The notes under the pieces were generated by a model. The model worked only from the letters and a program-made list of their open reading frames with translations. It made no database searches and was not told where the DNA came from. A program made the translations under genes and the position numbers. 64,000 bases of DNA from an uncultured Eubacteriales bacterium. GTDB lineage: Bacteria > Bacillota > Clostridia > Oscillospirales > CAG-272. Below are positions 2 to 14,251 of the stretch, piece after piece. Location of the stretch: positions 9,581 through 73,580 of the forward strand of contig CAKSNQ010000005.1 of NCBI GenBank assembly GCA_934476315.1. The letters are read 5' to 3'. Within the stretch, counting starts at the first letter, position 1. Every line of letters starts with the position of its first letter.

Positions 2-55
2 CAGACGCTCCTTGAGCAACTGCTCGAAAAAGGAAAGGAGACAACGGTAAAATGA
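2..55 (+). CDS. 3' end of a CDS that starts before the window (17 codons visible); product unknown
   Basis: Open frame from the window edge reads ...QTLLEQLLEKGKETTVK*. Its TGA overlaps the next ATG (ATGA), which suggests an operon with the following gene. Confidence 0.3.
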   Translation, partial: QTLLEQLLEKGKETTVK

Positions 56-1419
56 ACCTTTGGACGTACGTAAAGGAGCATATGATGGAAAATTCCGATC
101 AGAGAATCGCGGAGGGCAGGGAGTCGCTGTCCTTTGAGGAAACAGTGATCTGGGCGGAGGAGTTTGCAAAGAAGCTGAACGACTTTCATTGCTGTGCGAT
201 TCTTTGCTCCTCCGAAATGGCGACGGCAATGTCCCTGCTCGCCTGCTTTGCCGCCGGAGTGACGGCAGTTCCTCTTTCCATGCGGTATGGGGAGCTTCAC
301 TGCAATAAAATTCTCAGCGCCATCAGCCCCGACGCGATCATTACGGACACCGACAGCAGGATTCGGGTGTACAAAATCAAGGACAGCCAGTATATTCCGC
401 CTCAGGAGCACCCGGCGCTGATTATGTGTACCTCCGGCACCACGGGCATCCCGAAAGGCGCGATGCTCAGCGAGCGCAATATCATGACCAACGTGTCGGA
501 CATTGCGGAGTATTTCGTCATGGATCGGAGAGATACCATTCTGATCGTGCGCCCGCTGTATCATTGCGCCGTGCTGACCGGCGAATTCCTTACCGCGCTC
601 ATCCGGGGAGCCTGCGTCCGGTTCTATTCCGGGCAATTCAACCCGATGATGACGCTTGAGCTGATCCGCGAGAACGCGATCACCGCGTTTTGCGGGACGC
701 CGACATTGCTTTCCGTCATGGCGAGATTCAAGCGCGACTCCTATACAGATACCCTCCGGCACATCTGCGTCAGTGGGGAGTGTATGGGCGCCGAGGTCGG
801 GGAGCGGATCGCCGATGCCTTCCCGCAGTGTGCCGTTTATCACATCTACGGGTTGACCGAGGCGTGCCCCCGCGTCAGTTATCTGCCCCCGGAATATTTT
901 CGGGCGTATCCCGATTGCGTAGGTGTCCCGCTTCGGTCCGTGTCGGTCAAAATTCTGGACCCGCAGGGCAAGCCCTGCGGGGAGAACGAGGCAGGTATCC
1001 TGTACGTCAAGGGGGACAATGTGATGCTCGGGTACTACCGTCAGCCGGAAAAGACCCGCGAAATTCTGCGGGACGGCTGGCTGTGCACCGGAGATGTCGC
1101 ACTCATCAACAGTGCCGGTTTTCTGAAGATCAAAGGGCGGAACGACGACCTGATTATCCGCTCCGGGATGAACATTTATCCCGCGGAGATCGAAGCGGTC
1201 CTGAAACAGGATCCGCGGGTCAGGGAAGTGCTGGCATATGGCTTCCGCAACCAGCTCAGTACCCAGATCGGCTTGAAAGTCGTGGGCGATTTTGCATCTG
1301 TCGATGAAGTGAAACAGCTCTGCCTGCGGCTTCTTCCGCCGTACCAGCACCCGTCTGCCATCGAACTTCTGGAAGAACTGCCGAAAAACGGTTCCGGAAA
1401 GGTCATACGGCGCGGGTGA
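52..1419 (+). CDS. AMP-dependent synthetase/ligase (ANL adenylate-forming enzyme, acyl-CoA-synthetase-like)
   Basis: 455-aa ORF with SD AAAGGAAAGGAG upstream. It carries the AMP-binding signature TSGTTGIPKG, then YGLTE and TGD...GR.DD core motifs and a C-terminal GKV.R. Confidence 0.85.
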   Translation: MNLWTYVKEHMMENSDQRIAEGRESLSFEETVIWAEEFAKKLNDFHCCAILCSSEMATAMSLLACFAAGVTAVPLSMRYGELHCNKILSAISPDAIITDTDSRIRVYKIKDSQYIPPQEHPALIMCTSGTTGIPKGAMLSERNIMTNVSDIAEYFVMDRRDTILIVRPLYHCAVLTGEFLTALIRGACVRFYSGQFNPMMTLELIRENAITAFCGTPTLLSVMARFKRDSYTDTLRHICVSGECMGAEVGERIADAFPQCAVYHIYGLTEACPRVSYLPPEYFRAYPDCVGVPLRSVSVKILDPQGKPCGENEAGILYVKGDNVMLGYYRQPEKTREILRDGWLCTGDVALINSAGFLKIKGRNDDLIIRSGMNIYPAEIEAVLKQDPRVREVLAYGFRNQLSTQIGLKVVGDFASVDEVKQLCLRLLPPYQHPSAIELLEELPKNGSGKVIRRG

Positions 1420-1441: not shown

Positions 1442-2062
1442 ATGAAAACGATGACAGAACGGGAGAAAAAGCACCTTCTGACCGAGGAGCAATACCGTGT
1501 TCTTCTGGAACGCTTCGGGCAGGGCAAGCCGGTCTTCGAGCAGGTCAATTATTATTTTGACACCGATGACCTCGCCATGAACCGCCGGAGCATCACGTGC
1601 CGGATTCGCCTGAAAAACGGCAGATATAAGGGCACGATCAAGCGCCATAGAACCGGGACGGATCACAGTACCGAGACTGAGATCGAGGTGCGCGACGGCA
1701 TCCGGGAAAATGCGTTTGTCGATATGGGTCTGCACCTTAAGGGACAACTTGTCACGGAGCGACACGTCATTCAGAAAGACGCGTATTGTGAGGTGGTGCT
1801 GGACAAAAACGACTACCTCGGCATCACGGACTACGAGCTTGAGGTCGAGTACCTGCCCGGCGGCGAGACGGCGGCAGGGGAGACGATACGCGCGATTGCG
1901 GAGGTTTTGCAATGCGGAACGCACGTGAAACGCGGGAGTCGCGACAGCGCTAAAAGCAAGTCCGAAAGATTTTTCCGGAAATTGCTGGAATCAATTTTAA
2001 CCATGACAGAAGATGTCGCGGTTGTCCCTTATACTGAGGGTGCAGCTGCAAGGAACAAATAA
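1442..2062 (+). CDS. CYTH-domain protein (triphosphate tunnel metalloenzyme, YjbK-like)
   Basis: 206-aa ORF. It has an N-terminal ExExK motif (EREKK), an R.R strand (CRIRL) and a later acidic ELEVE strand, all typical of CYTH. Confidence 0.7.
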   Translation: MKTMTEREKKHLLTEEQYRVLLERFGQGKPVFEQVNYYFDTDDLAMNRRSITCRIRLKNGRYKGTIKRHRTGTDHSTETEIEVRDGIRENAFVDMGLHLKGQLVTERHVIQKDAYCEVVLDKNDYLGITDYELEVEYLPGGETAAGETIRAIAEVLQCGTHVKRGSRDSAKSKSERFFRKLLESILTMTEDVAVVPYTEGAAARNK

Positions 2063-2103: not shown

Positions 2104-2910
2104 ATGGCATGCAGAAATGTTTACCGGGTACCGACGGGGGATGAGGACGGGCATATGCCCAAGAGTATGATTACCGTCCCCGCGGTGGCAAAAAATGTGA
2201 ACCGTCTCCTCTTCGGCGCCGATTCGGCAACGCGGGCAGACGTCCTTCTTCAAAACAATATCCGGGAATTTGAATGGGTGGTCCGCAACAAAATTTACCC
2301 GAATTTCTACGGCAGATACCTGACCGGAAAGGATTGCCTGACCAAGGAAGAAATCAACTTCCTTCACGACAAGGGGTGCAAGATCGCTCCGATGTGCAAG
2401 GATATCTGCACAAAGGTAACGGAGTACGAGGGGCGCATGCTCGGTAAAAAGCTCGCGCTTCGCGCTCAGGATCTGCAGATTCCCACGGGCACCGCGATCT
2501 TCCTGGAGCTTGGCGAGGAGGAGGCAGTGAAGCGCGACTTCCTGCGTGGCTACGCGATTGCTCTGATGGAGGAGGGCTATACCCCCGGCTTCAAAGCGAA
2601 TACCGACGCGGCATTTAAGTTCGACCGTGAATTCAGTCGCGGGCTTCTGACAGAGAACAGCACCTTCAGAAGATGCATGATCTGGGCGGCGGCTCCCATT
2701 ATCGACAAATTCAACGGAATCAGAACCGCTCATCTGATCCATCCGGACAGATGGATGCCGTTTGCCCCCTCGGGGATGACGAGAAACGAGATTGCCGTCT
2801 GGCAGTATGGCAAAAATGCCCATCCCATCGAGGACGACAACGGAGGAGAAACGTTCTTCAACCTCAACCTCGTTCGCAACGAACAGGTCATCATCGAGAA
2901 AATGTTCTGA
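2104..2910 (+). CDS. Glycoside-hydrolase-like protein (Rv2525c/DUF1906-type, GH25-related fold), no signal peptide
   Basis: 268-aa ORF with SD AAAGGAG. The pattern FYGRYL..LT.EE...L...G..I.P...A..A...A..L.IP.GTAIFLE recalls DUF1906. The N-terminus is hydrophilic. An alternative start exists at 2152. The family call is from memory and was not searched. Confidence 0.5.
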   Translation: MACRNVYRVPTGDEDGHMPKSMITVPAVAKNVNRLLFGADSATRADVLLQNNIREFEWVVRNKIYPNFYGRYLTGKDCLTKEEINFLHDKGCKIAPMCKDICTKVTEYEGRMLGKKLALRAQDLQIPTGTAIFLELGEEEAVKRDFLRGYAIALMEEGYTPGFKANTDAAFKFDREFSRGLLTENSTFRRCMIWAAAPIIDKFNGIRTAHLIHPDRWMPFAPSGMTRNEIAVWQYGKNAHPIEDDNGGETFFNLNLVRNEQVIIEKMF

Positions 2911-2951
2911 TACACACAACAATTCAAATAAAAATGTAAAGGAGAAAAAAT

Positions 2952-5234
2952 ATGTTAGAGAATTATCATGCCTATTACGACTACGATTCCTGCGGTGGGT
3001 CCTGCGGCGGCGATTGCCCTCCCACCCCGACCCCCGTGTACGTTACCTCCGTCAGTGTCACGCCGAGCTACCTCAGCATGAAGGTCGGAGAGTGGTCCTA
3101 TGCCCCCTACGCCTCTGTCTTGCCGTCGAACGCCGATAACAGAACCGTGCAGTGGTACAGTAACGATTCGAGCATTGCCTCGGTCAACTCCTCCAGCGGC
3201 TACGTCTACGCGAATTCGGAAGGTACCACGCAAATTTACGCGGTTGCCACGGATGGAAGCGGTTGCCGCGACTACCTGACCGTGTCTGTGAGCCGGAGAG
3301 TTCTGGTTTCCACGGTGGAATTCGATTACACGAGCGTTACCCTTGAAAAGGGAGATAGCTGGCAGATTCATGCCACGATCTGCCCGTATAACGCGGATAA
3401 CACGGGACTGCGTTGGGAAAGCTCCAACACCGATATCGCAACTGTGAGCAACGGTCTTGTCACCGCCGTATCCCGCGGCACCGCGACCATTACCGCGACC
3501 GCACGCGACGGCAGTGGCGCAAGAGCCATTTGTACGGTTTACGTGACGGAAACCATTCCCGTGACCTCCGTCAATGTCTCTCCACAGTATAAGTCGATGT
3601 ACTGCGGAACGTCCAGTTATGTTTACGCAACGGTTTCCCCGTGCGACGCTACCAATTCAGAAGTGCTGTGGAGCAGTAGTGATGAGTGCGTTGCCACGGT
3701 GAACCCGGACAGCGGTCTGGTCTGGGCACGGTGCGCCGGTACAGCGGTCATCCGCGCAACCGCCCGCGACGGCAGTGGCGTATCCGGCTGTTGCTACCTG
3801 ACGGTCACGGAACAGATTTTGGTTCAGAATATTTACCTGAATCACTACGATATGACTCTGCCTGTCAATTCGTCCGGAATTCTGGAGGCATCCATTTGCC
3901 CCGAAAATGCCACGAATAAGACGATTTTGTGGACCAGTAGCAATACGCAGGTCGCCTCCATCAACGGCGCCGGCACCGTGGTCGCAAGGGGAATCGGTAC
4001 CGCAACGATTACCGCCAGCACCTACGACAACAGTGGCGTAACGGCATGCTGCCAGGTAACGGTCGTTCCGGTTCCGATTGAGAAGGTGGAACTGAATAAG
4101 ACCAAGATGTTCCTTGGAAAGGATGAGGTTGTGCAGCTGCAGTGCAACGTGACTCCTCGCAACGCGACAGTGTCGACCGTTACATGGGAATCCTCTCCCG
4201 GCTACGTTGCAAGCGTCTCCTCGAGCGGTGCTGTGACTGCCCTTGCCGATGGTACCGCCACGGTTACGGTACGGGTCAACGGAACCTATACTGCCACCTG
4301 CGAGGTTGTCGTGGATACAAGAGAAAAGGTTGTGATTGAAAAAGCGCTTGATACGGACAACGAGGAATACTTCAAAATCAAGTTTGATGATGGAAGCATC
4401 TGGAAAAGCATTGGTTGCGATTTGTCGCTGGACGTCAATCGTTCCGGAGGCCTCATGTCTGACCCGGATGACGAACGGCTAAACTGCCCGGAGCGGAGAC
4501 ATATGAGTAATGTGAGTATGAATTTCTCCGCAAGACAGCTTGCGTTCGCTTACTTGTGTGATCCTCTGGGTGTCGAATTCTACATGAATCGTTACGACAC
4601 TTCGGCGCACCCGATTTCAGCACTTGGGCTGATGTGTTTGAAGGATGAAATTTACAAGAACATCTTCGGACGCTGGCCGCGATTGTTCCGGGAACTTCCG
4701 GATGGTCAGGTCTCCTACGTCGTGTATACGCAATCTCAGGATGTTCGCCCCCATTATTATTCCGACGCTGAAATCATGTTCGGCGGACACACCATTGTCG
4801 ATTTCCTGTCTCTTGCGTCTTTTGCCTTCAATGTTATCAACAGCATCGCGTTGTCTATCTTCTCCATGGCTTCCGATTCCTTCGGTACATTTATGACAGC
4901 TATGGATATTTCAAAGCTGCTGTTGTTCAATGGCGCAGTAGAGGACACTCTTGCTAGCGGCTCGTCGGCGGCATTGTCCGAGTATGTGAACAATGTGATT
5001 AATTCCAGCACGAGCGTTCAAGCTGTGAGAAGCGGTTTGTCGAGCAGATTCGGCTGGGCGATGAACGTTCTGGATTTGATTCCTACCATTCTGGATGCTG
5101 CAGGTGCATTTGCGCCATCGCTGAATGAAATGAAAGTTTACACCAAGATCGACTCCGAGAACTTCCGGACTTGCTTCCTGGTGGACGGCGATGAAATGAG
5201 TTTGCAGGAACTTCTTGAAAACCTTGAAAACTAA
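2952..5234 (+). CDS. Large protein with five bacterial Ig-like group 2 (Big_2) repeats plus an uncharacterised ~300-aa C-terminal domain; no signal peptide
   Basis: 760-aa ORF with SD AAGGAG 8 nt upstream. It contains five ~85-aa repeats of the form V.SV.v.P....l..G.....A.V.P.nA.N..v.W.SSn..vA.V...G.V.A...GTA.I.A...DGSG, spanning about aa 29-455. The N-terminus is MLENYHAYYDYDSCGGSCGGDC with no hydrophobic stretch. Confidence 0.8.
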   Translation: MLENYHAYYDYDSCGGSCGGDCPPTPTPVYVTSVSVTPSYLSMKVGEWSYAPYASVLPSNADNRTVQWYSNDSSIASVNSSSGYVYANSEGTTQIYAVATDGSGCRDYLTVSVSRRVLVSTVEFDYTSVTLEKGDSWQIHATICPYNADNTGLRWESSNTDIATVSNGLVTAVSRGTATITATARDGSGARAICTVYVTETIPVTSVNVSPQYKSMYCGTSSYVYATVSPCDATNSEVLWSSSDECVATVNPDSGLVWARCAGTAVIRATARDGSGVSGCCYLTVTEQILVQNIYLNHYDMTLPVNSSGILEASICPENATNKTILWTSSNTQVASINGAGTVVARGIGTATITASTYDNSGVTACCQVTVVPVPIEKVELNKTKMFLGKDEVVQLQCNVTPRNATVSTVTWESSPGYVASVSSSGAVTALADGTATVTVRVNGTYTATCEVVVDTREKVVIEKALDTDNEEYFKIKFDDGSIWKSIGCDLSLDVNRSGGLMSDPDDERLNCPERRHMSNVSMNFSARQLAFAYLCDPLGVEFYMNRYDTSAHPISALGLMCLKDEIYKNIFGRWPRLFRELPDGQVSYVVYTQSQDVRPHYYSDAEIMFGGHTIVDFLSLASFAFNVINSIALSIFSMASDSFGTFMTAMDISKLLLFNGAVEDTLASGSSAALSEYVNNVINSSTSVQAVRSGLSSRFGWAMNVLDLIPTILDAAGAFAPSLNEMKVYTKIDSENFRTCFLVDGDEMSLQELLENLEN

Positions 5235-5248
5235 AAAATAGCATAAAA

Positions 5249-5280
5249 CTCCCGTGGACTACTCAGGTAGCCCACGGGAG
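5249..5280 (-). terminator. Rho-independent terminator for the LRR lipoprotein gene; may also stop the convergent Big_2 gene
   Basis: 9-bp stem CTCCCGTGG/CCACGGGAG. On the minus strand it is followed by TTTT and sits immediately after the stop at 5285. Confidence 0.6.
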
Positions 5281-5284
5281 AAAA

Positions 5285-6181
5285 TTACTTGACCTGCGTC
5301 TGAAATCCCGCCCATTCCGGGGATGTAAAGCCCTTGGCGTCCTTGTGATAGTACACCGTGTACTCAACAGGGCAGAACGAAATGTGAGGGACAGCCTCCG
5401 CATCGTACAGATAGGAGTCCGGAGCGTCGCCGTCAAACGTGACCTTCTTCAGCCCGCTGCAACCCGAAAAAGCCGCGTTGGTGACGGTTGTCACCGTTTT
5501 GGGGATAACAATCTCCGCCAGCTTCAAGTCCTTGGCGAAGGCTTCGATGCCGATGGTAAGCAATCCGTCGTTCAGCGTCACCGTTTTCAGGGCGGGGCAA
5601 TCCGAAAAAGCTCCGTCGCCGATAGCTTTGACGCTCTTGGGGAGAATCAATTTAGACAAGCCCGTGTTGTGGAAAGCATACGGGAAAATTTGCTCGAGTC
5701 CCTCGTAAAATTCCACGGACTCCAGCCGGGTGCAATCGGCAAAAGCAGAATCCGAAATCGTCACGACAGAGACGGGAATCCTTACATGACGCAAGGAAAA
5801 GCAACCCATGAAAGCGCTGGCGTCAATCTTTGTGAGCGAGTTGGAAAGAGTAACCGACTCAAGATACACGCACCCGGCGAAGGCATATTCGCCGATCAAT
5901 TTGACCGTATCCGGCATCGTGAGCGAAACGACCAGACTGGAGATAAAGGCTTGCGCCCCGATCTGCGTGACCGGAGAGGCGTTGATCATATCCGGAATGG
6001 CGACCGCGCCGCCCTTGCCGATATACTTGGTAATCGTGACTCCGCCGTCGCTGTTCGTCCGGTATTCAAAATCATTTGCCGGAGTGGTGGGAGTCTCCCG
6101 CGTTCCGCGGAGAGAATCACAACCGCCAAGGCAGATCAGAAGCAAAACTACGGATAGAAAACTGCAAAGTATTTTTTTCAT
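5285..6181 (-). CDS. BspA-type leucine-rich-repeat (LRR_5) surface lipoprotein, paralog 1
   Basis: 298-aa ORF with signal peptide and lipobox (LLICLGGC). It has repeated ~23-25-aa units (IP.sV..Ig..AF..C..L..v.l) and a C-terminal YTVYYHKDAKGFTSPEW. Confidence 0.8.
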   Translation of the reverse strand: MKKILCSFLSVVLLLICLGGCDSLRGTRETPTTPANDFEYRTNSDGGVTITKYIGKGGAVAIPDMINASPVTQIGAQAFISSLVVSLTMPDTVKLIGEYAFAGCVYLESVTLSNSLTKIDASAFMGCFSLRHVRIPVSVVTISDSAFADCTRLESVEFYEGLEQIFPYAFHNTGLSKLILPKSVKAIGDGAFSDCPALKTVTLNDGLLTIGIEAFAKDLKLAEIVIPKTVTTVTNAAFSGCSGLKKVTFDGDAPDSYLYDAEAVPHISFCPVEYTVYYHKDAKGFTSPEWAGFQTQVK

Positions 6182-6238
6182 TAGATACCTCCAAAGTTTG
6201 GCTGACCAAAAAAGCAGGTGGATTTGTACTTCAGATAA

Positions 6239-7132
6239 TTATCTGATCTGCGTTTGAAATCCCGACCATTCCGGGGATGTAAAGCCCTTGGCGTCTTTGC
6301 GATAGTACACTGTGTACTCAACGGGAATGAATGAAATGTGATACGTTTCCGGGTCATACAGATAAGTTTCCGGTGCGTCGCCGTCGAAAATGACTTTCTT
6401 CAGCCCGGTGCAACCGGAGAACGCCGCATTGGTAACGGTTTTCACGGTCTTGGGAATGACGATTTCTTCCAATTTCATATCTTTGGCAAACGCTTCATTT
6501 CCAATCGTAACCAGCCCGTTATTCAACGTCACCGTTTTCAGAGAGGGGCAAGACGCGAACGCCCCGATGCCGATGGTCTGAACATTTTTGGGAAGAACCA
6601 GCTTGGTCAGGCTCGTGTGGCTGAACGCGTATGCGGAAATCTGCTCAATCCCCTCGCCAAACTCCACGGTTTCCAGCCGCGAGCAGTATTGGAACGCGGA
6701 TTCCGAGATAGTTTTGACAGAGGAGGGGATTTTCACGTTTCGCAGGGAAGAGCAATTCATAAAGGCGCCGAGTCCGATGTTGGTGAGCGCGTTTGAAAAG
6801 GTGATCGACTCAAGATTTGTGCATCCGGCGAAGGCATGCTCACCGATCGAAGTCACAGTATCCGGCATCACCAGGGTGACGATCAGATTGGACATAAAGG
6901 ACTGCAACCCGATCTGTGTGACCGTGGAACCGTTGATTGTTTCCGGGATGGAGACCGCGCCGCCTTTTCCAACGTATTTGGTGATTGTGATTCCACCGTC
7001 ACTGTTTGTTTCATATTCAAAATCTTCTGTGGGACTTGTGGGAATTTTCTGCGCTCCCCGGAGAGAGTCGCATCCGCTGAGGCAAAGTAGCAACAAAACT
7101 ACGGACAGAAAACTGCAAAGTATTTTTTTCAT
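6239..7132 (-). CDS. BspA-type LRR surface lipoprotein, paralog 2 (recent tandem duplicate of 5285-6181)
   Basis: Start is taken at MKKILCSF (7132), because the upstream ATG at 7144 lies inside the SD GGAGGT. The lipobox is LLCLSGC. The protein is collinear with paralog 1 over its full length. Confidence 0.8.
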   Translation of the reverse strand: MKKILCSFLSVVLLLLCLSGCDSLRGAQKIPTSPTEDFEYETNSDGGITITKYVGKGGAVSIPETINGSTVTQIGLQSFMSNLIVTLVMPDTVTSIGEHAFAGCTNLESITFSNALTNIGLGAFMNCSSLRNVKIPSSVKTISESAFQYCSRLETVEFGEGIEQISAYAFSHTSLTKLVLPKNVQTIGIGAFASCPSLKTVTLNNGLVTIGNEAFAKDMKLEEIVIPKTVKTVTNAAFSGCTGLKKVIFDGDAPETYLYDPETYHISFIPVEYTVYYRKDAKGFTSPEWSGFQTQIR

Positions 7133-7183
7133 TGATACCTCCAAAGTTTAGTTGAACAAAAAATAGGTGGAATCTGTATGCAC

Positions 7184-7212
7184 ATTATACTATAAATTAT
7201 CGGTGCTGTCAA
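7184..7212 (-). promoter_or_regulatory. Sigma-A type promoter, exact consensus TTGACA-N17-TATAAT, driving the LRR paralog 2/1 pair
   Basis: Minus-strand TTGACA lies at 7212-7207, followed by a 17-nt spacer and TATAAT at 7189-7184, about 50 nt upstream of the ATG at 7132. Confidence 0.7.
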
Positions 7213-7517
7213 TAAGTGCCAATAATATATACAGAAAATTCATTTTTAATTGATTAAGCATATATAAAATAAGGGAAACGGGTATGGTAAGAATCCCGAA
7301 AAACTGTCGGAATTTCTTGGAAAATCGCGCAACAGAGAGAAAAACATACAGGCGTATGAAGCGCGGAGGGGGAGTAGATCTACCGCTTTCCCGATAAATT
7401 CCATTAAGAAGCATATGACCGTGCCGGGGCTTATATCACAAATATTTTCATTTTTTCCAAAATATTTTCCTGCGATTCCATAGCCTACTCGGATTTCAAG
7501 CACACGCATCTTCGTTC

Positions 7518-7545
7518 AAAAAACCACCCGTTTTGAGGTGGTTTT
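7518..7545 (-). terminator. Rho-independent terminator downstream of the third LRR gene
   Basis: Minus strand reads AAAACCACC-loop-GGTGGTTTTTT. It is preceded by a second perfect 13-bp hairpin, CCGGCACGTTCCC/GGGAACGTGCCGG, at 7561-7591. Confidence 0.7.
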
Positions 7546-7612
7546 CGTTTTGAAATCGATCCGGCACGTTCCCATTATGGGAACGTGCCGGAATAAAACA
7601 TAAACCTTAAGA

Positions 7613-8590
7613 CTATTTGATTGGAATCATCTCGTATACTCCCACCCATGCGCAGTCATCCCAGCCTTTGGCTTCCGGATGATAGTAGATTGTCGGGGCG
7701 GAGTAAAAACTTGTCGGTTCAATGATCTCGGGGCAGTCCCCTTCAAAAACAAAGCGGGCAGAGCACCCTCCCATGATCATAAAAGGCAATGTGGAAAATC
7801 TTTTGGTAGATTTAGGAATTATAATTTGAGGATTTGAGGAAATAGAAAAGTACCCATAGAAACCGTCGAGATCTTCCCATCCGTCTTTAAATATGATTTT
7901 TTCCAGAACCGGCGTTTCGTAGAAGACGGATTCAGAGGACATGAATTTTAAGTCAAGCGATGTGGGAACGCGTATTGTTTTTAGCGAAGAACAATAGCTG
8001 AATGCGGCTCTTCCGATTTTCTGAAGACCGTTCGGAAGATCAATTTCCAAAAGTGAAGAGCAATTCCGGAAAGTGATGGCACCAATTTCCACAAGAGTTT
8101 CCGGGAGCGCAATGTGTTCAAGTCCGGTACAATCTTCAAATACGCCGCCGTCCATGTCTTTTAGCGCAGTCTTCGAAAAATCAACCGTTTTCAGGTTTAT
8201 GCACCCTTGAAAAGCGCGTCCGCCAATTCCTCTAAGGTTTTTGGAGACTTTTATTTCTGTCAATTCTTTGCAGTCCCTAAATGCGTACCGCCCGATTCCA
8301 AGAACGGTATCCGGGAGAGTAACTGAACGCACGTTGCTGCCTTCAAATGCGCCAGAGCCTGGGATGCCACTGCCGGTAAAGAGAATTGAGAATACTTTCT
8401 TTCCGTCAATTTCCGCAGGAACAACAACGTTTTGAGAGGTTCCAATGTACTTGGTGATATATACCGATTGACCGTCATCGCTTAGTTTATACTCAAAATC
8501 CGTCGCCGGGGTTTCTTTCGGGGCGTTATGGCACGAGCAGAGACAAACGATGGCAAGCAGAGCGGCAAACAACAACAGAAGTTTTTTCAT
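7613..8590 (-). CDS. BspA-type LRR surface lipoprotein, diverged paralog 3
   Basis: 325-aa ORF with SD AAGGAG. It has a signal peptide and lipobox (IVCLCSC), the same FEY...ITKYIG..VVVP architecture and LRR_5-like repeats. Confidence 0.8.
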   Translation of the reverse strand: MKKLLLLFAALLAIVCLCSCHNAPKETPATDFEYKLSDDGQSVYITKYIGTSQNVVVPAEIDGKKVFSILFTGSGIPGSGAFEGSNVRSVTLPDTVLGIGRYAFRDCKELTEIKVSKNLRGIGGRAFQGCINLKTVDFSKTALKDMDGGVFEDCTGLEHIALPETLVEIGAITFRNCSSLLEIDLPNGLQKIGRAAFSYCSSLKTIRVPTSLDLKFMSSESVFYETPVLEKIIFKDGWEDLDGFYGYFSISSNPQIIIPKSTKRFSTLPFMIMGGCSARFVFEGDCPEIIEPTSFYSAPTIYYHPEAKGWDDCAWVGVYEMIPIK

Positions 8591-10935: not shown

Positions 10936-10983
10936 GAGCATGACAAGTAGCGTCAGAGCTATTTGTCATGCTCATTTATTTTT
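10936..10983 (+). terminator. Rho-independent terminator after the zinc-ribbon gene
   Basis: Perfect 11-bp stem GAGCATGACAA/TTGTCATGCTC followed by ATTTATTTTT. Confidence 0.7.
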
Positions 10984-11004
10984 GCGGAAAGGAGGGGGAG
11001 TGCG

Positions 11005-11343
11005 ATGGGAACTGCCGAGCGGAGACTGGAAATATACAAATATCTGTGTCTTGTCAGAAAAGCGACCATGCCTCAGCTTGCGAAGAAGTTCGGCGTTTCC
11101 GTCAGAACGATCCAGCGGGATATTTTTGAGATCGAGGCAACGTTCCGCGTCCCCCTCGAGGTGAAAACAGGGAAATACGGGGGAATCAGTGTGTTCGGTG
11201 ACTACACGCTGGACCGCGCGTATATGTGCGAGGAGGAGCTGCAGTTGCTGTGCAAGGTGCAGGCACTGGTCAAGGGGCAGGTGAGCGAGCAGGAAAACGC
11301 GCTTCTCTGCGGGCTGATTAAAAAATATTCAAAAAGTGCGTAA
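11005..11343 (+). CDS. Small HTH-domain protein (DeoR/HTH_11-like N-terminal winged helix)
   Basis: Start is taken at MGTAERRL, which has SD AAGGAGGGGG. The pattern RRLEIYKYL....ATMPQLAKKFGVSVRTIQRDI is typical of HTH_11. Confidence 0.7.
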   Translation: MGTAERRLEIYKYLCLVRKATMPQLAKKFGVSVRTIQRDIFEIEATFRVPLEVKTGKYGGISVFGDYTLDRAYMCEEELQLLCKVQALVKGQVSEQENALLCGLIKKYSKSA

Positions 11344-11434: not shown

Positions 11435-11737
11435 ATGGAAGATGTAAGAAAAGACCTACAGGTTGTTCTGGAGCGTCACGAACAGCAACTTCTGACGCTT
11501 GAGCGCGACATTTCGGATCTGAGGGCGGTGCAGGCGGAGATTCGTTCGATGAACGAGACCCTCGTCACCCTGGCGACCGAAATGAAGCATACAAACGAGC
11601 ACCTGGCGCGTCACGAGCAGAAGATTGAAGCCATAGAAGCCGCCCCCCGCGCGCGGATGCAGCAGATTGCAACCGCGATCTTTGCCGCCCTCGCCGGAGG
11701 AATTATTTCTGCCGCGATTGGCATGATTTTTGCATGA
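11435..11737 (+). CDS. XhlA-like protein (phage lysis-cassette coiled-coil protein with a C-terminal TM helix)
   Basis: 100-aa ORF with SD AAAGGAG. It has an N-terminal heptad-like coiled coil and a C-terminal hydrophobic helix (IATAIFAALAGGIISAAIGMIFA). It sits directly before a holin. Confidence 0.6.
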   Translation: MEDVRKDLQVVLERHEQQLLTLERDISDLRAVQAEIRSMNETLVTLATEMKHTNEHLARHEQKIEAIEAAPRARMQQIATAIFAALAGGIISAAIGMIFA

Positions 11738-11751
11738 GGAGGGATGAAACC

Positions 11752-12042
11752 ATGAATTTTGAACAGTATATCAAGCCGGAGCTTCTCATTTTGATCCCGG
11801 TGCTGTATGTCATCGGAATCGGTCTGAAAAAAAGCAAGCTCCCCGACACGCTCATTCCTCTGATTTTGGGCGGGATTTCCATCGCCCTGTCGGCGTTTTG
11901 GGTGATCGCGACCAGCGGCATTTCTACGGCTGGTGACGTTACCTACGCGATGTTCGTGTCGGTCACGCAGGGTGTTCTTGCCGCAGGAGCCAGCGTCTAT
12001 ATCAATCAACTGTACGTCCAATCCAAAAAGAAGAAAAAGTAA
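11752..12042 (+). CDS. Phage holin family protein (Hol44/LL-H-like)
   Basis: 96 aa with SD GAGGAGGG overlapping the XhlA stop. The N-terminus is MNFEQYIKPELLILIPVLYVIGIGLKKSK. It has 2-3 TM helices and a lysine-rich C-terminal tail (QSKKKKK). Confidence 0.7.
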   Translation: MNFEQYIKPELLILIPVLYVIGIGLKKSKLPDTLIPLILGGISIALSAFWVIATSGISTAGDVTYAMFVSVTQGVLAAGASVYINQLYVQSKKKKK

Positions 12043-12056
12043 AGGGGAAGACCAAG

Positions 12057-13148
12057 ATGTTGCACCTGATTTTTATCACCATCGGCGTGATTTATAACGG
12101 AATCAGCCTGTGGTTTATTCGGATGTTTTTCAAGGAGCGGGACGGGGTCACATGGAAAAATTATCTGAAGTGCTTTGTTGGTGCTCCTGTGGGGTGCGCG
12201 GCATCCCTGTTGCTTTTCCCGATCAAAACCCCGAACCTCCTGTTATTTACGGTGATGGGAGGTCTGCTCGGGGAGCTGGGCATTCTGTTCACCCTTGCCG
12301 TAAAGCAAGCCGGCGAAAAAAATCCCGCGGGGCGATACAGCGACAGCACTCCCGACGCGCGATTTTTCATCACGGGGGACAAGCACCGTCGGTTTGCGGA
12401 GGTGAAAAAGTTCTGCCGTGTGATGGACACGAAAAGAAGCGACGTATTGATTGTCCTCGGAGACACCGGGTTCAATTACTACGGCGACAAGCGGGACGAC
12501 AAGCTCAAAAGGGAAATATCCGCTCTGGCTATCACGCTCTTTTGCCTCCACGGAAACAAGGAAAACCGCCCTCAGAATGTGGGGAGCTACGGAATCCGGG
12601 ACTTCTGCGGCGGAAAGGTCTACTATGAGCCACGGTATCCAAATCTGTATTTTGCCATGGACGGTGAAATTTACACCTTTGAAGGCAGAAAGTACATGGT
12701 TGTCGGCGGGGCGCACAGCGTGGATAAAATGCGGAGTCTTGAGGAAGGGAAGCCTTTTTGGGAGGACGAAATGCCGGACGGGGAGGTCAGACGGACAGTT
12801 GAGAACAGATTGCAAAAAGAGGAAAACAAAATCTACGGAATGTTGACGCACACCTGTCCGATCCGTTGTCTCCCGACGGAAATGTTTGTCTCAACGCGGC
12901 AAAGCGCGAATCTCCGGAACCATCCCCGCCGGGTGGCGACCATGAAAAAATCAAAAAAGTTTATCAAGCCGGATATCGACCGTTCCACGGAAATATGGCT
13001 TGGCGAGCTGGAACAAAAGCTCGAATACGAGGCTTGGTTCTGCGGTCATTACCACATTGACAAGCGCCTTGGCAAGGTCAGGATGATGTATCATGACATC
13101 CGCCCGCTACACACACCGCCCCCGGAGGATACGCCATGCCCGACCTGA
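12057..13148 (+). CDS. Membrane-anchored metallophosphoesterase (three N-terminal TM helices plus a calcineurin-like phosphoesterase domain)
   Basis: 363 aa with SD AAGGGGAAG. The first ~85 aa are hydrophobic. They are followed by the motifs GDKH, LGDTG, HGNKE (Lys in place of the usual His), GGAHS and CGHYH. Confidence 0.7.
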   Translation: MLHLIFITIGVIYNGISLWFIRMFFKERDGVTWKNYLKCFVGAPVGCAASLLLFPIKTPNLLLFTVMGGLLGELGILFTLAVKQAGEKNPAGRYSDSTPDARFFITGDKHRRFAEVKKFCRVMDTKRSDVLIVLGDTGFNYYGDKRDDKLKREISALAITLFCLHGNKENRPQNVGSYGIRDFCGGKVYYEPRYPNLYFAMDGEIYTFEGRKYMVVGGAHSVDKMRSLEEGKPFWEDEMPDGEVRRTVENRLQKEENKIYGMLTHTCPIRCLPTEMFVSTRQSANLRNHPRRVATMKKSKKFIKPDIDRSTEIWLGELEQKLEYEAWFCGHYHIDKRLGKVRMMYHDIRPLHTPPPEDTPCPT

Positions 13149-14251
13149 AGGTGCTCCTGTCACCCCTGCCGCTTTTCTTCCTGATTGTGATCGCGGGACT
13201 TGCCATCGGGAAAATACGGATTTATCACGTCTCGCTTGGAATTGCCGGTATTCTGTTTGCGGCAATTTTTGCCGGTTTTCTCATGAACCGATGGATTTCC
13301 GGAGCGCACATTCAAATATTACAGAGCGTGCAGGGAACAATGAACACATTGTCAAAGCTCGGCTCGTCCCTGTTCGTCTCTGTCATTGGATTGCAAACCG
13401 GGTTCTCCGTCAGAAACCGCTCCGGTGAGTCGCTTGCTTCCCTGGGGGTAGGCGCCGCGATGAGCACCGCGGGGGTACTTCTTGAGAGGCTGATTTCAGC
13501 GCTGGACCCGACGATCCGTGAGCCGATGCTCCTCGGCGTCCTCTGCGGCGCTCTGACGAGTACACCGGGATTGTCGAGCGTATGCGAATTGATTGACGGG
13601 CAAAGCGGGGAAGCGGTCTGGGGTTATGGGTGTTCCTATTTTTGCGGTGTTTTGTTTGCGGTGATCTTTGCCCGCGCACTGGGCGGGCGGCAAGCCGGGG
13701 AACAGCCGAAAAAGAAAACACCCGCAACGGAAAGCAAAATCCATCCGGAATGGATTCTTGTCAGCCTTCCGGCACTGCTGGGCGGGATTCTTGGCGAGAC
13801 TCGTGTGCCGATTCTGAATTTTTCACTCGGAAGCACCACGTGCACCTTACTCGCCGGGCTGGTGGTCGGCTGTGTTGCCGATCGTAAACAAAACGCACCC
13901 CGGTACTCCCGACAGGTGCTGAATGTGTTCAGAAATATAGGACTGGCGTTTTTCTTCGCGGGAACCGGGTACACCACGGGAACGCAGGCGGTCAACATCT
14001 GGGGCAAAGCCGTGATTTATGGGGCGTCGATCACCTTGACCGCGATTTTGTGCGGCATACTCCTGTGCCGCCTTGCGGCTTCAAGATTCCGCCTACGCCC
14101 CGGATTTGTCATCGCCGGCGGAATGACGAGTAGTCCCGCATACGGAGCAATCGGCACGGGTGACGACGAGGCTTGCGTGAATCATTTTTCATTTGCCTAT
14201 TTTGGCGCCATGCTTGCGCTGATGGTTGCGATTCAGATTATTGGCAGATAA
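13136..14251 (+). CDS. AAE-family (Asp-Al_Ex / YidE-YbjL-like) permease without TrkA-C domains
   Basis: 371 aa with SD GGAGGA. The start lies 13 nt inside the preceding gene. It is polytopic, with a duplicated G..T(S)TP.L signature (GALTSTPGLSS, GGMTSSPAYGA). Confidence 0.7.
   Translation: MPDLKVLLSPLPLFFLIVIAGLAIGKIRIYHVSLGIAGILFAAIFAGFLMNRWISGAHIQILQSVQGTMNTLSKLGSSLFVSVIGLQTGFSVRNRSGESLASLGVGAAMSTAGVLLERLISALDPTIREPMLLGVLCGALTSTPGLSSVCELIDGQSGEAVWGYGCSYFCGVLFAVIFARALGGRQAGEQPKKKTPATESKIHPEWILVSLPALLGGILGETRVPILNFSLGSTTCTLLAGLVVGCVADRKQNAPRYSRQVLNVFRNIGLAFFFAGTGYTTGTQAVNIWGKAVIYGASITLTAILCGILLCRLAASRFRLRPGFVIAGGMTSSPAYGAIGTGDDEACVNHFSFAYFGAMLALMVAIQIIGR

Follow-up and report, generated by a model that had tools for sequence, protein, structure and literature searches.

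Endolysins are the classic example of signal-less proteins that reach the cell wall, which they do by way of holin lesions. Holin-dependent release has also been established for signal-less toxins, both in clostridia and in type 10 secretion systems (PMC9527704, PMC10847048). Clostridia without Tat release signal-less toxins via holins, and the Gram-negative type 10 systems employ a holin together with a wall hydrolase to let out large cargo, among it the RHS-containing Tc toxins (PMC9527704, PMC10847048, PMC10516005). Examples of type 10 systems are the Tc toxin of Yersinia entomophaga, ChiWXYZ of Serratia and TtsA of Salmonella Typhi (PMC10847048, PMC9527704). Here we analyzed a 64,000-nucleotide (nt) stretch of DNA from an uncultured Eubacteriales bacterium of the Oscillospirales (GenBank assembly GCA_934476315.1, contig CAKSNQ010000005.1, positions 9,581 to 73,580), referred to as the window. 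It carries two adjacent genes, A and B, predicted to encode a protein with the fold of wall hydrolases and a protein built largely of bacterial immunoglobulin-like (Big_2) repeats. From gene content and genomic neighborhoods, we see an even chance that A and B form a conserved accessory and cargo module, serving a type 10-like, holin- and muramidase-dependent release of polymorphic effectors in Oscillospirales-type gut Clostridia. In what follows, G000 is the source genome of the window (87.6% complete), other G labels are genomes and L labels are neighborhood loci. The features of the two genes are:

2104..2910, + strand: gene A, 268 amino acids (aa), a signal-less DUF1906/Rv2525c-like protein with a predicted GH25-type barrel
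2952..5234, + strand: gene B, 760 aa, consisting of a leader, five Big_2 repeats and the C-terminal domain CTD-X
2952..3038, + strand: leader of B, the N-terminal 29 residues (MLENYHAYYDYDSCGGSCGGDC...), Cys/Gly-rich and non-hydrophobic
3039..4331, + strand: head of B, five Big_2 repeats, residues ~30-460 (PF02368, E 1.4e-65)
4332..5234, + strand: CTD-X of B, 300 aa, residues 461-760

An earlier interpretation made from the letters alone (the sequence-only reading) had described two co-oriented genes 41 nt apart, the first with a DUF1906/GH25-like fold and the second with five Big_2 repeats, and each of these points was borne out. Both open reading frames (ORFs) were found at the coordinates listed, co-oriented on the + strand with 41 nt between them, and a GGAG ribosome-binding site precedes each ATG by 7-11 nt. 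The Big_2 model matched B with 217.7 bits over five stretches, and the leader and CTD-X were found in addition. On A, the DUF1906 model itself, PF08924 (Rv2525c_GlyHyd-like), scored 20.9 bits, under its gathering threshold of 27.2; most A homologues carry a precomputed PF08924 match. The DUF1906 structure 1SFS was matched by A in a phmmer search of the PDB (E 6.8e-12) and by the profile of the A family (E 3.5e-18, residues 32-240), so that by sequence comparison A is clearly homologous to 1SFS despite the sub-threshold Pfam score. An AlphaFold2 model of A (pLDDT 71.6, moderate quality) is a barrel of alternating strands and helices. With this model, Foldseek returned 1SFS first (E 2.1e-14, target TM-score 0.79), followed by the GH25 lysozymes and endolysins LytC, PlyB, Ply40, cellosyl and the phiSM101 endolysin (E 8e-5 to 1e-2), and a search of viral models (BFVD) returned phage lysozymes (E 5e-6 to 1e-3). 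As modeled, A has the fold of the GH25/DUF1906 wall hydrolases and phage lysozymes.

Homologues of A number several hundred in gut metagenomes, nearly all of them 266-270 aa long and 60-73% identical. They share an architecture of an invariant MACR N-terminus, a hypervariable stretch of ~20 residues (about 8-30) and then the barrel. Since the MACR N-terminus (window 2104-2115) and the 268-aa length are kept in 24 homologues, the start of A is not mis-annotated, and since the Cys codon of MACR alternates between TGC and TGT among homologues, the constraint acts on the protein. MACR may serve as a tag for recognition, be modified, or form a disulphide with the cargo. Within the barrel, the acidic residues D40, E57, E83, D168, D174, D215 and E243-D244-D245 are invariant. 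The motifs FGvD40S, FLE135xGE138, N166-T-D168 and W233-Q-Y occur in the same order as the GH25 hallmarks IDVS, FDVED, YTNN and WQY, and the invariant D40 in FGvDS corresponds to the GH25 IDVS motif. Catalytic residues were compared by motif order only, because profile-profile alignment with GH25 failed: PF01183 (GH25) did not match A, and comparing the A family with six GH25 domains in hhalign yielded a probability of 0.8% and no usable alignment. Rv2525c of Mycobacterium tuberculosis is a Tat substrate. A resembles Rv2525c and the other DUF1906 proteins in the GH25-like TIM-type barrel and the significant similarity to 1SFS; it differs in having no signal, in a unique MACR N-terminus followed by a variable linker, and in residing in a genome (87.6% complete) in which no TatC above the curated cut-off was found.

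The absence of export signals, which had also been proposed from the letters alone, was seen in both proteins. No 19-residue window with a Kyte-Doolittle value of at least 1.6 occurs anywhere in A (maximum 0.84) or in the N-terminal part of B, and the first 45 residues of both proteins lack a lipobox or twin-arginine motif. Neither gene has an upstream in-frame start. A mis-annotated start hiding a signal peptide was considered and rejected, as no upstream start exists and the length and MACR N-terminus of A are conserved; no signal peptide emerges on re-annotation. About 150 representatives of the CTD-X family are likewise without Sec, lipoprotein or Tat signals. Most of these proteins begin with a sequence of the MICVNSVSV type (M-I/T/S-C/Y-V-N-S-V-S-V), which is the first Big_2 strand, and others begin with acidic Cys-rich leaders. 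We also considered B as a type VII secretion substrate (LXG/WXG100) and rejected this, as no LXG match was found in B and no WXG100 protein, the type VII marker, was found in G000 at its 87.6% completeness.

The neighborhoods of A were compared across metagenome contigs and species-representative genomes of the same family and order. In 17 of the 18 locus types, A lies directly 5' of a co-oriented, signal-less gene with a Big_2 head, with gaps of 14-175 nt where measured. What follows the head varies. Several loci (L001-L007, L023, L027, L060, L064) have a DUF6531 and RHS/YD shell that ends in a toxin tip, with small ORFs and orphan RHS-tip cassettes after it, and CTD-X is found in the window, L021, L022, L024 and L045. 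Other loci have a ricin lectin with DUF1906 (L025), Amidase_2 (L063), or an unknown payload or none (L020, L026); one A-linked cargo consists of ten Big_2 repeats with no recognizable payload. The cargo heads are 50-53% identical across CTD-X, RHS, Amidase_2, DUF1906 or unknown payloads. For example, the head of B is 50% identical to that of a 1877-aa RHS toxin and 50-51% identical to Big_2-DUF6531-RHS heads. One head with interchangeable payloads is the signature of a polymorphic effector family, of which A is the constant accessory gene. By sequence, B belongs to such a family, which includes RHS toxins and in which the head is conserved and the C-terminal payload variable.

Polymorphic toxins such as the RHS/YD, contact-dependent inhibition (CDI), LXG and MuF types are described in the survey by Zhang et al. 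2012 as combining a conserved N-terminal trafficking head with variable C-terminal payloads, and leucine-rich repeat (LRR) immunity proteins (Imm-LRR) are a recognized class among them (PMC3482391). The present family has the same organization, and its relatives also have orphan C-terminal cassettes and immunity genes. It differs in that the head is a signal-less Big_2 array, without LXG, PAAR, two-partner secretion (TPS) domain or signal peptide, in that a GH25-like accessory gene lies 5' of the head, and in that the candidate immunity gene of B is convergent rather than downstream on the same strand. The word 'holin' is absent from the 300,000 characters of that survey's text that were searched (PMC3482391).

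Several further cargos were observed in the course of this comparison. L063:10001-12969 and L064:3249-7900, from two assemblies, have an identical A and identical first 70 cargo residues; the first cargo has an Amidase_2 end (715 aa) and the second an RHS shell, by sequence a case of one payload replacing another behind a shared head. Past the L063 cargo lies a convergent gene for a 238-aa lipoprotein. The cargo at L025:8568-11339 (G074:C9) combines four Big_2 repeats with a ricin lectin and ends in a DUF1906 domain (PF08924, E 3.7e-20); this domain belongs to a different branch from A and is not a close copy of it. G000 has a second cargo on contig C4 (L059:9182-13582 = G000:C4:71181-75581), consisting of a leader, four Big_2 repeats, DUF6531 and RHS; it is at least 1466 aa long and ends at the contig end. 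Its leader (L059:9182-9320) has the same opening motif as that of B (MSFNYQNYYDEGCCGGSCGGSCG...) and its head is 51% identical to that of B. No A adjoins this cargo, and its upstream neighbors are thioredoxin, YmdB and MntP genes. In both G000 cargos and in other relatives (L062:10853-11030), the first Big_2 repeat comes after an acidic, Cys/Gly-rich leader (N-Y-x-x-Y-Y-D...C-G-G-S-C-G-G); many other members of the cargo family have no leader and begin directly with Big_2.

CTD-X is, on the sequence evidence, a widespread orphan domain and a genuine family. When 1.84 billion representatives were searched exhaustively, 170 clusters (50% identity) were recovered at E<=1e-3, where a word-index protein search with the CTD-X region had found one relative only. 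The domain is invariably C-terminal, in proteins of 280-1740 aa whose N-terminal parts are Big_2 arrays, Flg_new repeats, ricin lectins or other heads. It has no family in Pfam, NCBIfam, PHROGs or PADLOC; a fold search against the PDB gave nothing below E 2, and a sequence profile search of the PDB gave a chance-level match only. The first half of the domain (residues 1-153) is predicted to be alpha/beta, at an AlphaFold2 pLDDT of 70-87. The variable second half is helical and in part hydrophobic, and was modeled at a pLDDT <50. The invariant polar residues R56, N60, Y74, D77, D105, R139, E147 and H153 (domain numbering) all lie in the alpha/beta half and look like an active site. Two kinds of side observation concern CTD-X proteins and A. 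A 374-383-aa protein without a family (L028:8838-9962, L037:5354-6505) replaces A 5' of CTD-X proteins that have a different head of ~270 aa (motif EEIxLAPxxEL..EAxxIA). Short remnants lie beside intact modules, namely a 27-aa CTD-X piece at 89% identity (L004-L007, ~8200-8290) and an 82-aa A piece (L027:3675-3923), and these suggest past cassette turnover.

A holin module lies on the same strand downstream of B, as the sequence-only reading had pointed out. Its genes in the window, listed here with a regulator gene before them, are:

10963..11343, + strand: HTH_11/DeoR-type regulator (PF08279, E 1e-8)
11435..11737, + strand: XhlA-like coiled-coil protein with a C-terminal transmembrane helix (residues 81-99; phrog_937 'hemolysin', E 1.7e-7)
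11734..12042, + strand: Hol44-type holin (Phage_holin_5_2; PF16079, E 2.3e-22; phrog_1129 holin)
12057..13148, + strand: membrane-anchored metallophosphoesterase of the holin operon (PF00149; three N-terminal hydrophobic segments)
13136..14251, + strand: AAE-family permease, final gene of the holin operon

The XhlA/Hol44 module begins 6.2 kb past the stop codon of B, and the end of the XhlA-like gene overlaps the start of the holin gene by 4 nt. The Pfam XhlA model does not match the 100-aa XhlA-like protein, which is so named because of its PHROG hemolysin families, architecture and position. No wall hydrolase was found in the holin operon of the window, also as previously proposed; only the metallophosphoesterase and the permease come after the holin. 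The PBSX/SPbeta-type lysis cassette of Bacillus subtilis is xhlA-xhlB-xlyA. The module of the window resembles it in that a small holin comes directly after an XhlA-like membrane protein, and differs in having no amidase after the holin, in lying outside a prophage and in being joined to a phosphoesterase and a permease. The HTH_11 regulator has homologues in most related islands (L020, L022, L023, L026, L027, L044, L047, L062, L063). The metallophosphoesterase follows the holin in L049 and L063, directly or with an amidase gene between, and the permease is kept after the holin in L020, L022, L049 and L050.

A co-occurs with holins across related genomes, a linkage that the sequence-only reading had proposed to look for. 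Among 151 genomes of the family, A (E<=1e-20) was found in 11 and Hol44 in 11, and both were found in 7, where chance would give ~0.8 (one-sided Fisher test, p = 3e-7; p = 2.8e-6 when the window's genome is left out; not corrected for kinship). In the scans of the family and the order together, Hol44 was present in 9 of the 11 genomes with a strong A homologue, each of a different genus, against background frequencies of 7% (family) and 14% (order). In six loci, each from a separate genome or assembly, A and Hol44 share a strand and are no more than 11 kb apart. Arrangements on a single strand include the following:

G000 (the window): A and holin ~9 kb apart, same strand
G124: A-cargo-XhlA-holin-permease contiguous, same strand
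G139: A and holin ~6 kb apart, same strand
G100 (Clostridium sp. CAG:448): A and holin 10.6 kb apart, same strand
G191 (another family): holin-Amidase_2-A contiguous, same strand, no cargo beside
L063: XhlA-holin-Amidase_2-phosphoesterase-HTH_11-six genes-A-cargo on one strand, ~13 kb

Two more genomes show holins next to RHS genes at contig breaks. In G075, an XhlA-holin-phosphoesterase-permease operon comes right after orphan RHS cassettes, and in G078 the holin adjoins an RHS gene. As a separate observation, L042:4439-5054 encodes XhlA and then a 112-aa holin-like protein that is not of the Hol44 family; a CTD-X cargo ends 2 kb before this pair, and an IS200-like gene separates them.

Between B and the holin module, the genes next to B are convergent with it:

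5249..5280, no strand: 14-bp hairpin separating B from the gene of LRR_5 lipoprotein 1, probably a terminator for both
5285..6181, - strand: LRR_5 lipoprotein 1, BspA-type, convergent with B (PF13306, E 3e-55; signal peptide and lipobox LGGC)
6239..7144, - strand: LRR_5 lipoprotein 2, a paralogue
7613..8590, - strand: LRR_5 lipoprotein 3, a more divergent paralogue

A convergent gene for a BspA-type LRR_5 lipoprotein follows the Big_2-CTD-X gene in all nine loci with downstream DNA (the window, L020, L021, L022, L024, L028, L039, L045 and one further locus; relatives of the L063 type were excluded), and no such gene follows any of the RHS cargos examined. No same-strand immunity gene was found on the + strand 3' of B; the RHS relatives have small downstream ORFs and orphan cassettes. 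The copies are three in tandem and diverged in the window (5285-8590), and one to three in related loci, each convergent with the CTD-X gene. From this adjacency, the LRR_5 lipoproteins are probable immunity proteins or, alternatively, receptors for CTD-X.

The type 10-like model is drawn because the island combines an XhlA/holin pair without an endolysin, a signal-less protein of endolysin fold and signal-less cargo of 80-200 kDa. Under this model, the cargo would fold in the cytoplasm, and the XhlA/Hol44 of the same island would open the membrane, possibly in a fraction of the cells and possibly accompanied by lysis. A, signal-less like the phage endolysins, would follow through the holin and cut the peptidoglycan of the producer, and the cut wall would let the 80-200 kDa cargo through. 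Outside the cell, the Big_2 head would adhere and the payload would act on neighboring bacteria. The convergent LRR_5 surface lipoproteins would most likely shield the producer from CTD-X as immunity proteins, or else dock CTD-X. A bolder version, which we offer only tentatively and rate below an even chance, is that of a dedicated, hitherto undescribed export pathway of the Oscillospirales: XhlA/Hol44 with A as the wall opener, the Big_2 head, with or without a leader, as the address label for RHS, CTD-X, amidase or DUF1906 payloads, and CTD-X as a new envelope-targeting toxin neutralized by LRR lipoproteins.

The parallels with type 10 secretion are a phage-derived holin and a signal-less, here putative, wall hydrolase in a toxin island that is not a prophage, a large cargo, which in Yersinia also has an RHS-type shell, and regulator genes of the island's own. 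There are also differences. The host here is Gram-positive, and a spanin is accordingly absent. The DUF1906/GH25-like protein is encoded beside the cargo and not beside the holin, and the holin is accompanied by an XhlA-like partner, a membrane phosphoesterase and a permease. Because the cargo is polymorphic, with swappable payloads and probable immunity genes, its targets are likely to be other bacteria and not an animal host. The second close comparison is with TcdE/TcdL of the Clostridioides difficile pathogenicity locus (PaLoc) and TpeE of Clostridium perfringens (PMC10516005, PMC12485765, PMC9527704). These are likewise found in hosts of the class Clostridia and link large signal-less toxins to a holin and an endolysin-derived protein, and in both cases release may be lytic or non-lytic. 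TcdL is a fragment of an amidase-type endolysin, whereas A is a full-length and strongly conserved GH25-like barrel; the cargo here is unrelated to the large clostridial toxins, and the holin is of a different family (Hol44 with XhlA).

A number of observations weigh against holin-dependent release with A as the wall opener. G022 (98% complete) has A and Big_2-RHS, and no XhlA, Hol44 or SPP1-type holin was detected in it; G056 has only a weak XhlA-like match, and in several metagenome loci with A and RHS no holin is seen up to 10 kb away. Hol44 holins are frequent across the order, occurring in 55 of 401 genomes and presumably for the most part within prophages, and the co-occurrence tests ignore phylogenetic relatedness, though each genome with A is of a different genus. 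The GH25 D-x-E is not exactly kept, most A proteins having E-x-G-E (E135-x-G-E138) after strand 4. Because of this and the failed GH25 profile comparison, A may, like TcdL, lack catalytic activity. Two loci have an Amidase_2 gene behind the holin, and A is directly next in L044 and 7.5 kb downstream in L063; as the holin there has its own amidase, A is not needed for a complete lysis pair. A is thus not simply the 'missing hydrolase' of the holin, as the sequence-only reading had suggested. That reading is supported in part: the fold and the holin linkage stand, and the amidase-type endolysins present besides A in two loci and the G022 genome without a detectable holin limit it. The last two points against this role concern the relation between A and its cargo: the tight pairing fits a cargo-specific partner at least equally to a general wall opener, and cargos with the other N-terminal head are preceded by the unrelated 374-383-aa protein in place of A.

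These points lead to the alternative that survives best, although on balance we find it rather unlikely, in which A is a cargo-specific partner. A would then be a chaperone or adaptor acting on the Big_2 head, or a co-delivered enzyme cutting the wall of the target, and release from the producer would take another route or be plain holin lysis. A is constantly just 5' of the cargo, with gaps often of 14-50 nt, typical of translational coupling, and a change of cargo head goes with an unrelated gene in the position of A. Some cargos carry wall hydrolases (DUF1906, Amidase_2), so wall attack on targets is part of the system, and the amidases of L044 and L063 already serve the holin there. Against a cargo-specific role, G000 and G124 have two or three cargos for a single A, the second G000 cargo being one without an adjoining A, and in G191 the holin-amidase-A cassette has no cargo beside it. 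A is itself signal-less and would also need a non-classical exit. The two roles of A, export opener and cargo partner, are compatible and not exclusive.

The strict adjacency of CTD-X and LRR genes is equally compatible with a receptor pair and an immunity pair, and it bears on a second alternative, in which B is a surface adhesin or structural protein. CTD-X would anchor it via the LRR_5 lipoproteins or its hydrophobic helices, and the Big_2 array would face outward. Big_2, Flg_new and ricin-lectin heads are typical adhesin modules, the cargo of ten Big_2 repeats has no recognizable payload, and no same-strand immunity gene lies past B. Elsewhere, however, the same head bears RHS toxins and wall hydrolases, the invariant D77, D105, R139, E147 and H153 of CTD-X look like an active site, and the LRR genes are tandem and diverged, like polyimmunity arrays. 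We consider an adhesin improbable.

It is very improbable that A and B act in the cytoplasm and are not exported, for example with A working on a cytoplasmic glycan or in wall-precursor recycling. The lack of export signals in both proteins would fit this, as would their position 3' of a cytoplasmic acyl-activation operon, possibly on one transcript, and the alignment with 1SFS starts from its residue 25 on, so that a signal peptide is not seen in the alignment. The RHS toxins with immunity genes and orphan cassettes, the amidase payloads and the Big_2, ricin and Flg_new modules, however, make sense only extracellularly, and the paired LRR proteins are surface lipoproteins. The sequence-only reading had also allowed for leftovers of a phage tail or lysis region, and such a decayed remnant without present function, its holin proximity historical, is largely refuted and next to negligible: the Ig-like domains do match PHROG tail and head families, and XhlA/holin and an XRE/ImmA pair are phage-type genes, but tblastn of A and CTD-X against 50,697 phage records gave no match, no structural, integrase or packaging genes were found in the island, A is of full length with many invariant residues and hundreds of homologues, and the gene order is kept across at least nine genera and two families. 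Separately, an anti-phage defense system was considered and rejected, with no PADLOC match.

Upstream of A, the window opens within an operon on the same strand:

52..1419, + strand: AMP-binding (fatty-acyl ligase-like) gene (NCBIfam long-chain-fatty-acid ligase families, E 1e-71)
1442..2062, + strand: CYTH-domain gene, final gene of the upstream operon (PF01928, E 1e-14)

The stop codon of the CYTH gene lies 41 nt from A, and no promoter-like or terminator-like sites were found on the + strand in this gap. The operon extends past the start of the window (G000:C5, L058:6666-9635). It is co-directional with A and the cargo and constantly 5' of them, and consists of HTH_11, NTP_transf_5, a dTMP-kinase-like gene, an acyl carrier protein, a ~338-aa protein without a family, the fatty-acyl-AMP-ligase-like gene and CYTH. 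The same gene order precedes the A homologues in L062, L063, L064 and L044, and the operon is present in L028 too; in L063 it sits between the holin module and A. The upstream operon might modify the wall, A or the cargo. That its acyl carrier and acyl ligase modify the invariant N-terminal Cys of A or the Cys-rich leaders would be a further layer to the release of the cargo, and a doubtful one.

Our literature search turned up no paper that connects DUF1906 with RHS toxins or with toxins bearing a Big_2 head, and nothing on holin-linked polymorphic toxins in Gram-positive commensals or on an XhlA and toxin module like this one. To our knowledge, holin-dependent release has so far been described mainly for host-directed toxins of pathogens, namely the large clostridial toxins, Tc toxins and typhoid toxin. 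The present analysis suggests a variant that combines type 10-like release with polymorphic toxins and has an orphan effector domain. It bears on the question of how Gram-positive bacteria export large signal-less polymorphic toxins without an LXG/type VII head, and offers a compact gene set that could be reconstituted, consisting of XhlA, the holin, the GH25-like protein, a Big_2-headed cargo and an LRR lipoprotein. It also gives the DUF1906 family a concrete biological context and defines an orphan effector domain of 300 aa (170 clusters at 50% identity), to which a candidate family of cognate immunity proteins can be assigned. The gene set is widespread in abundant, uncultured Clostridia of the human and animal gut, and would open a test of interbacterial antagonism among these commensals.

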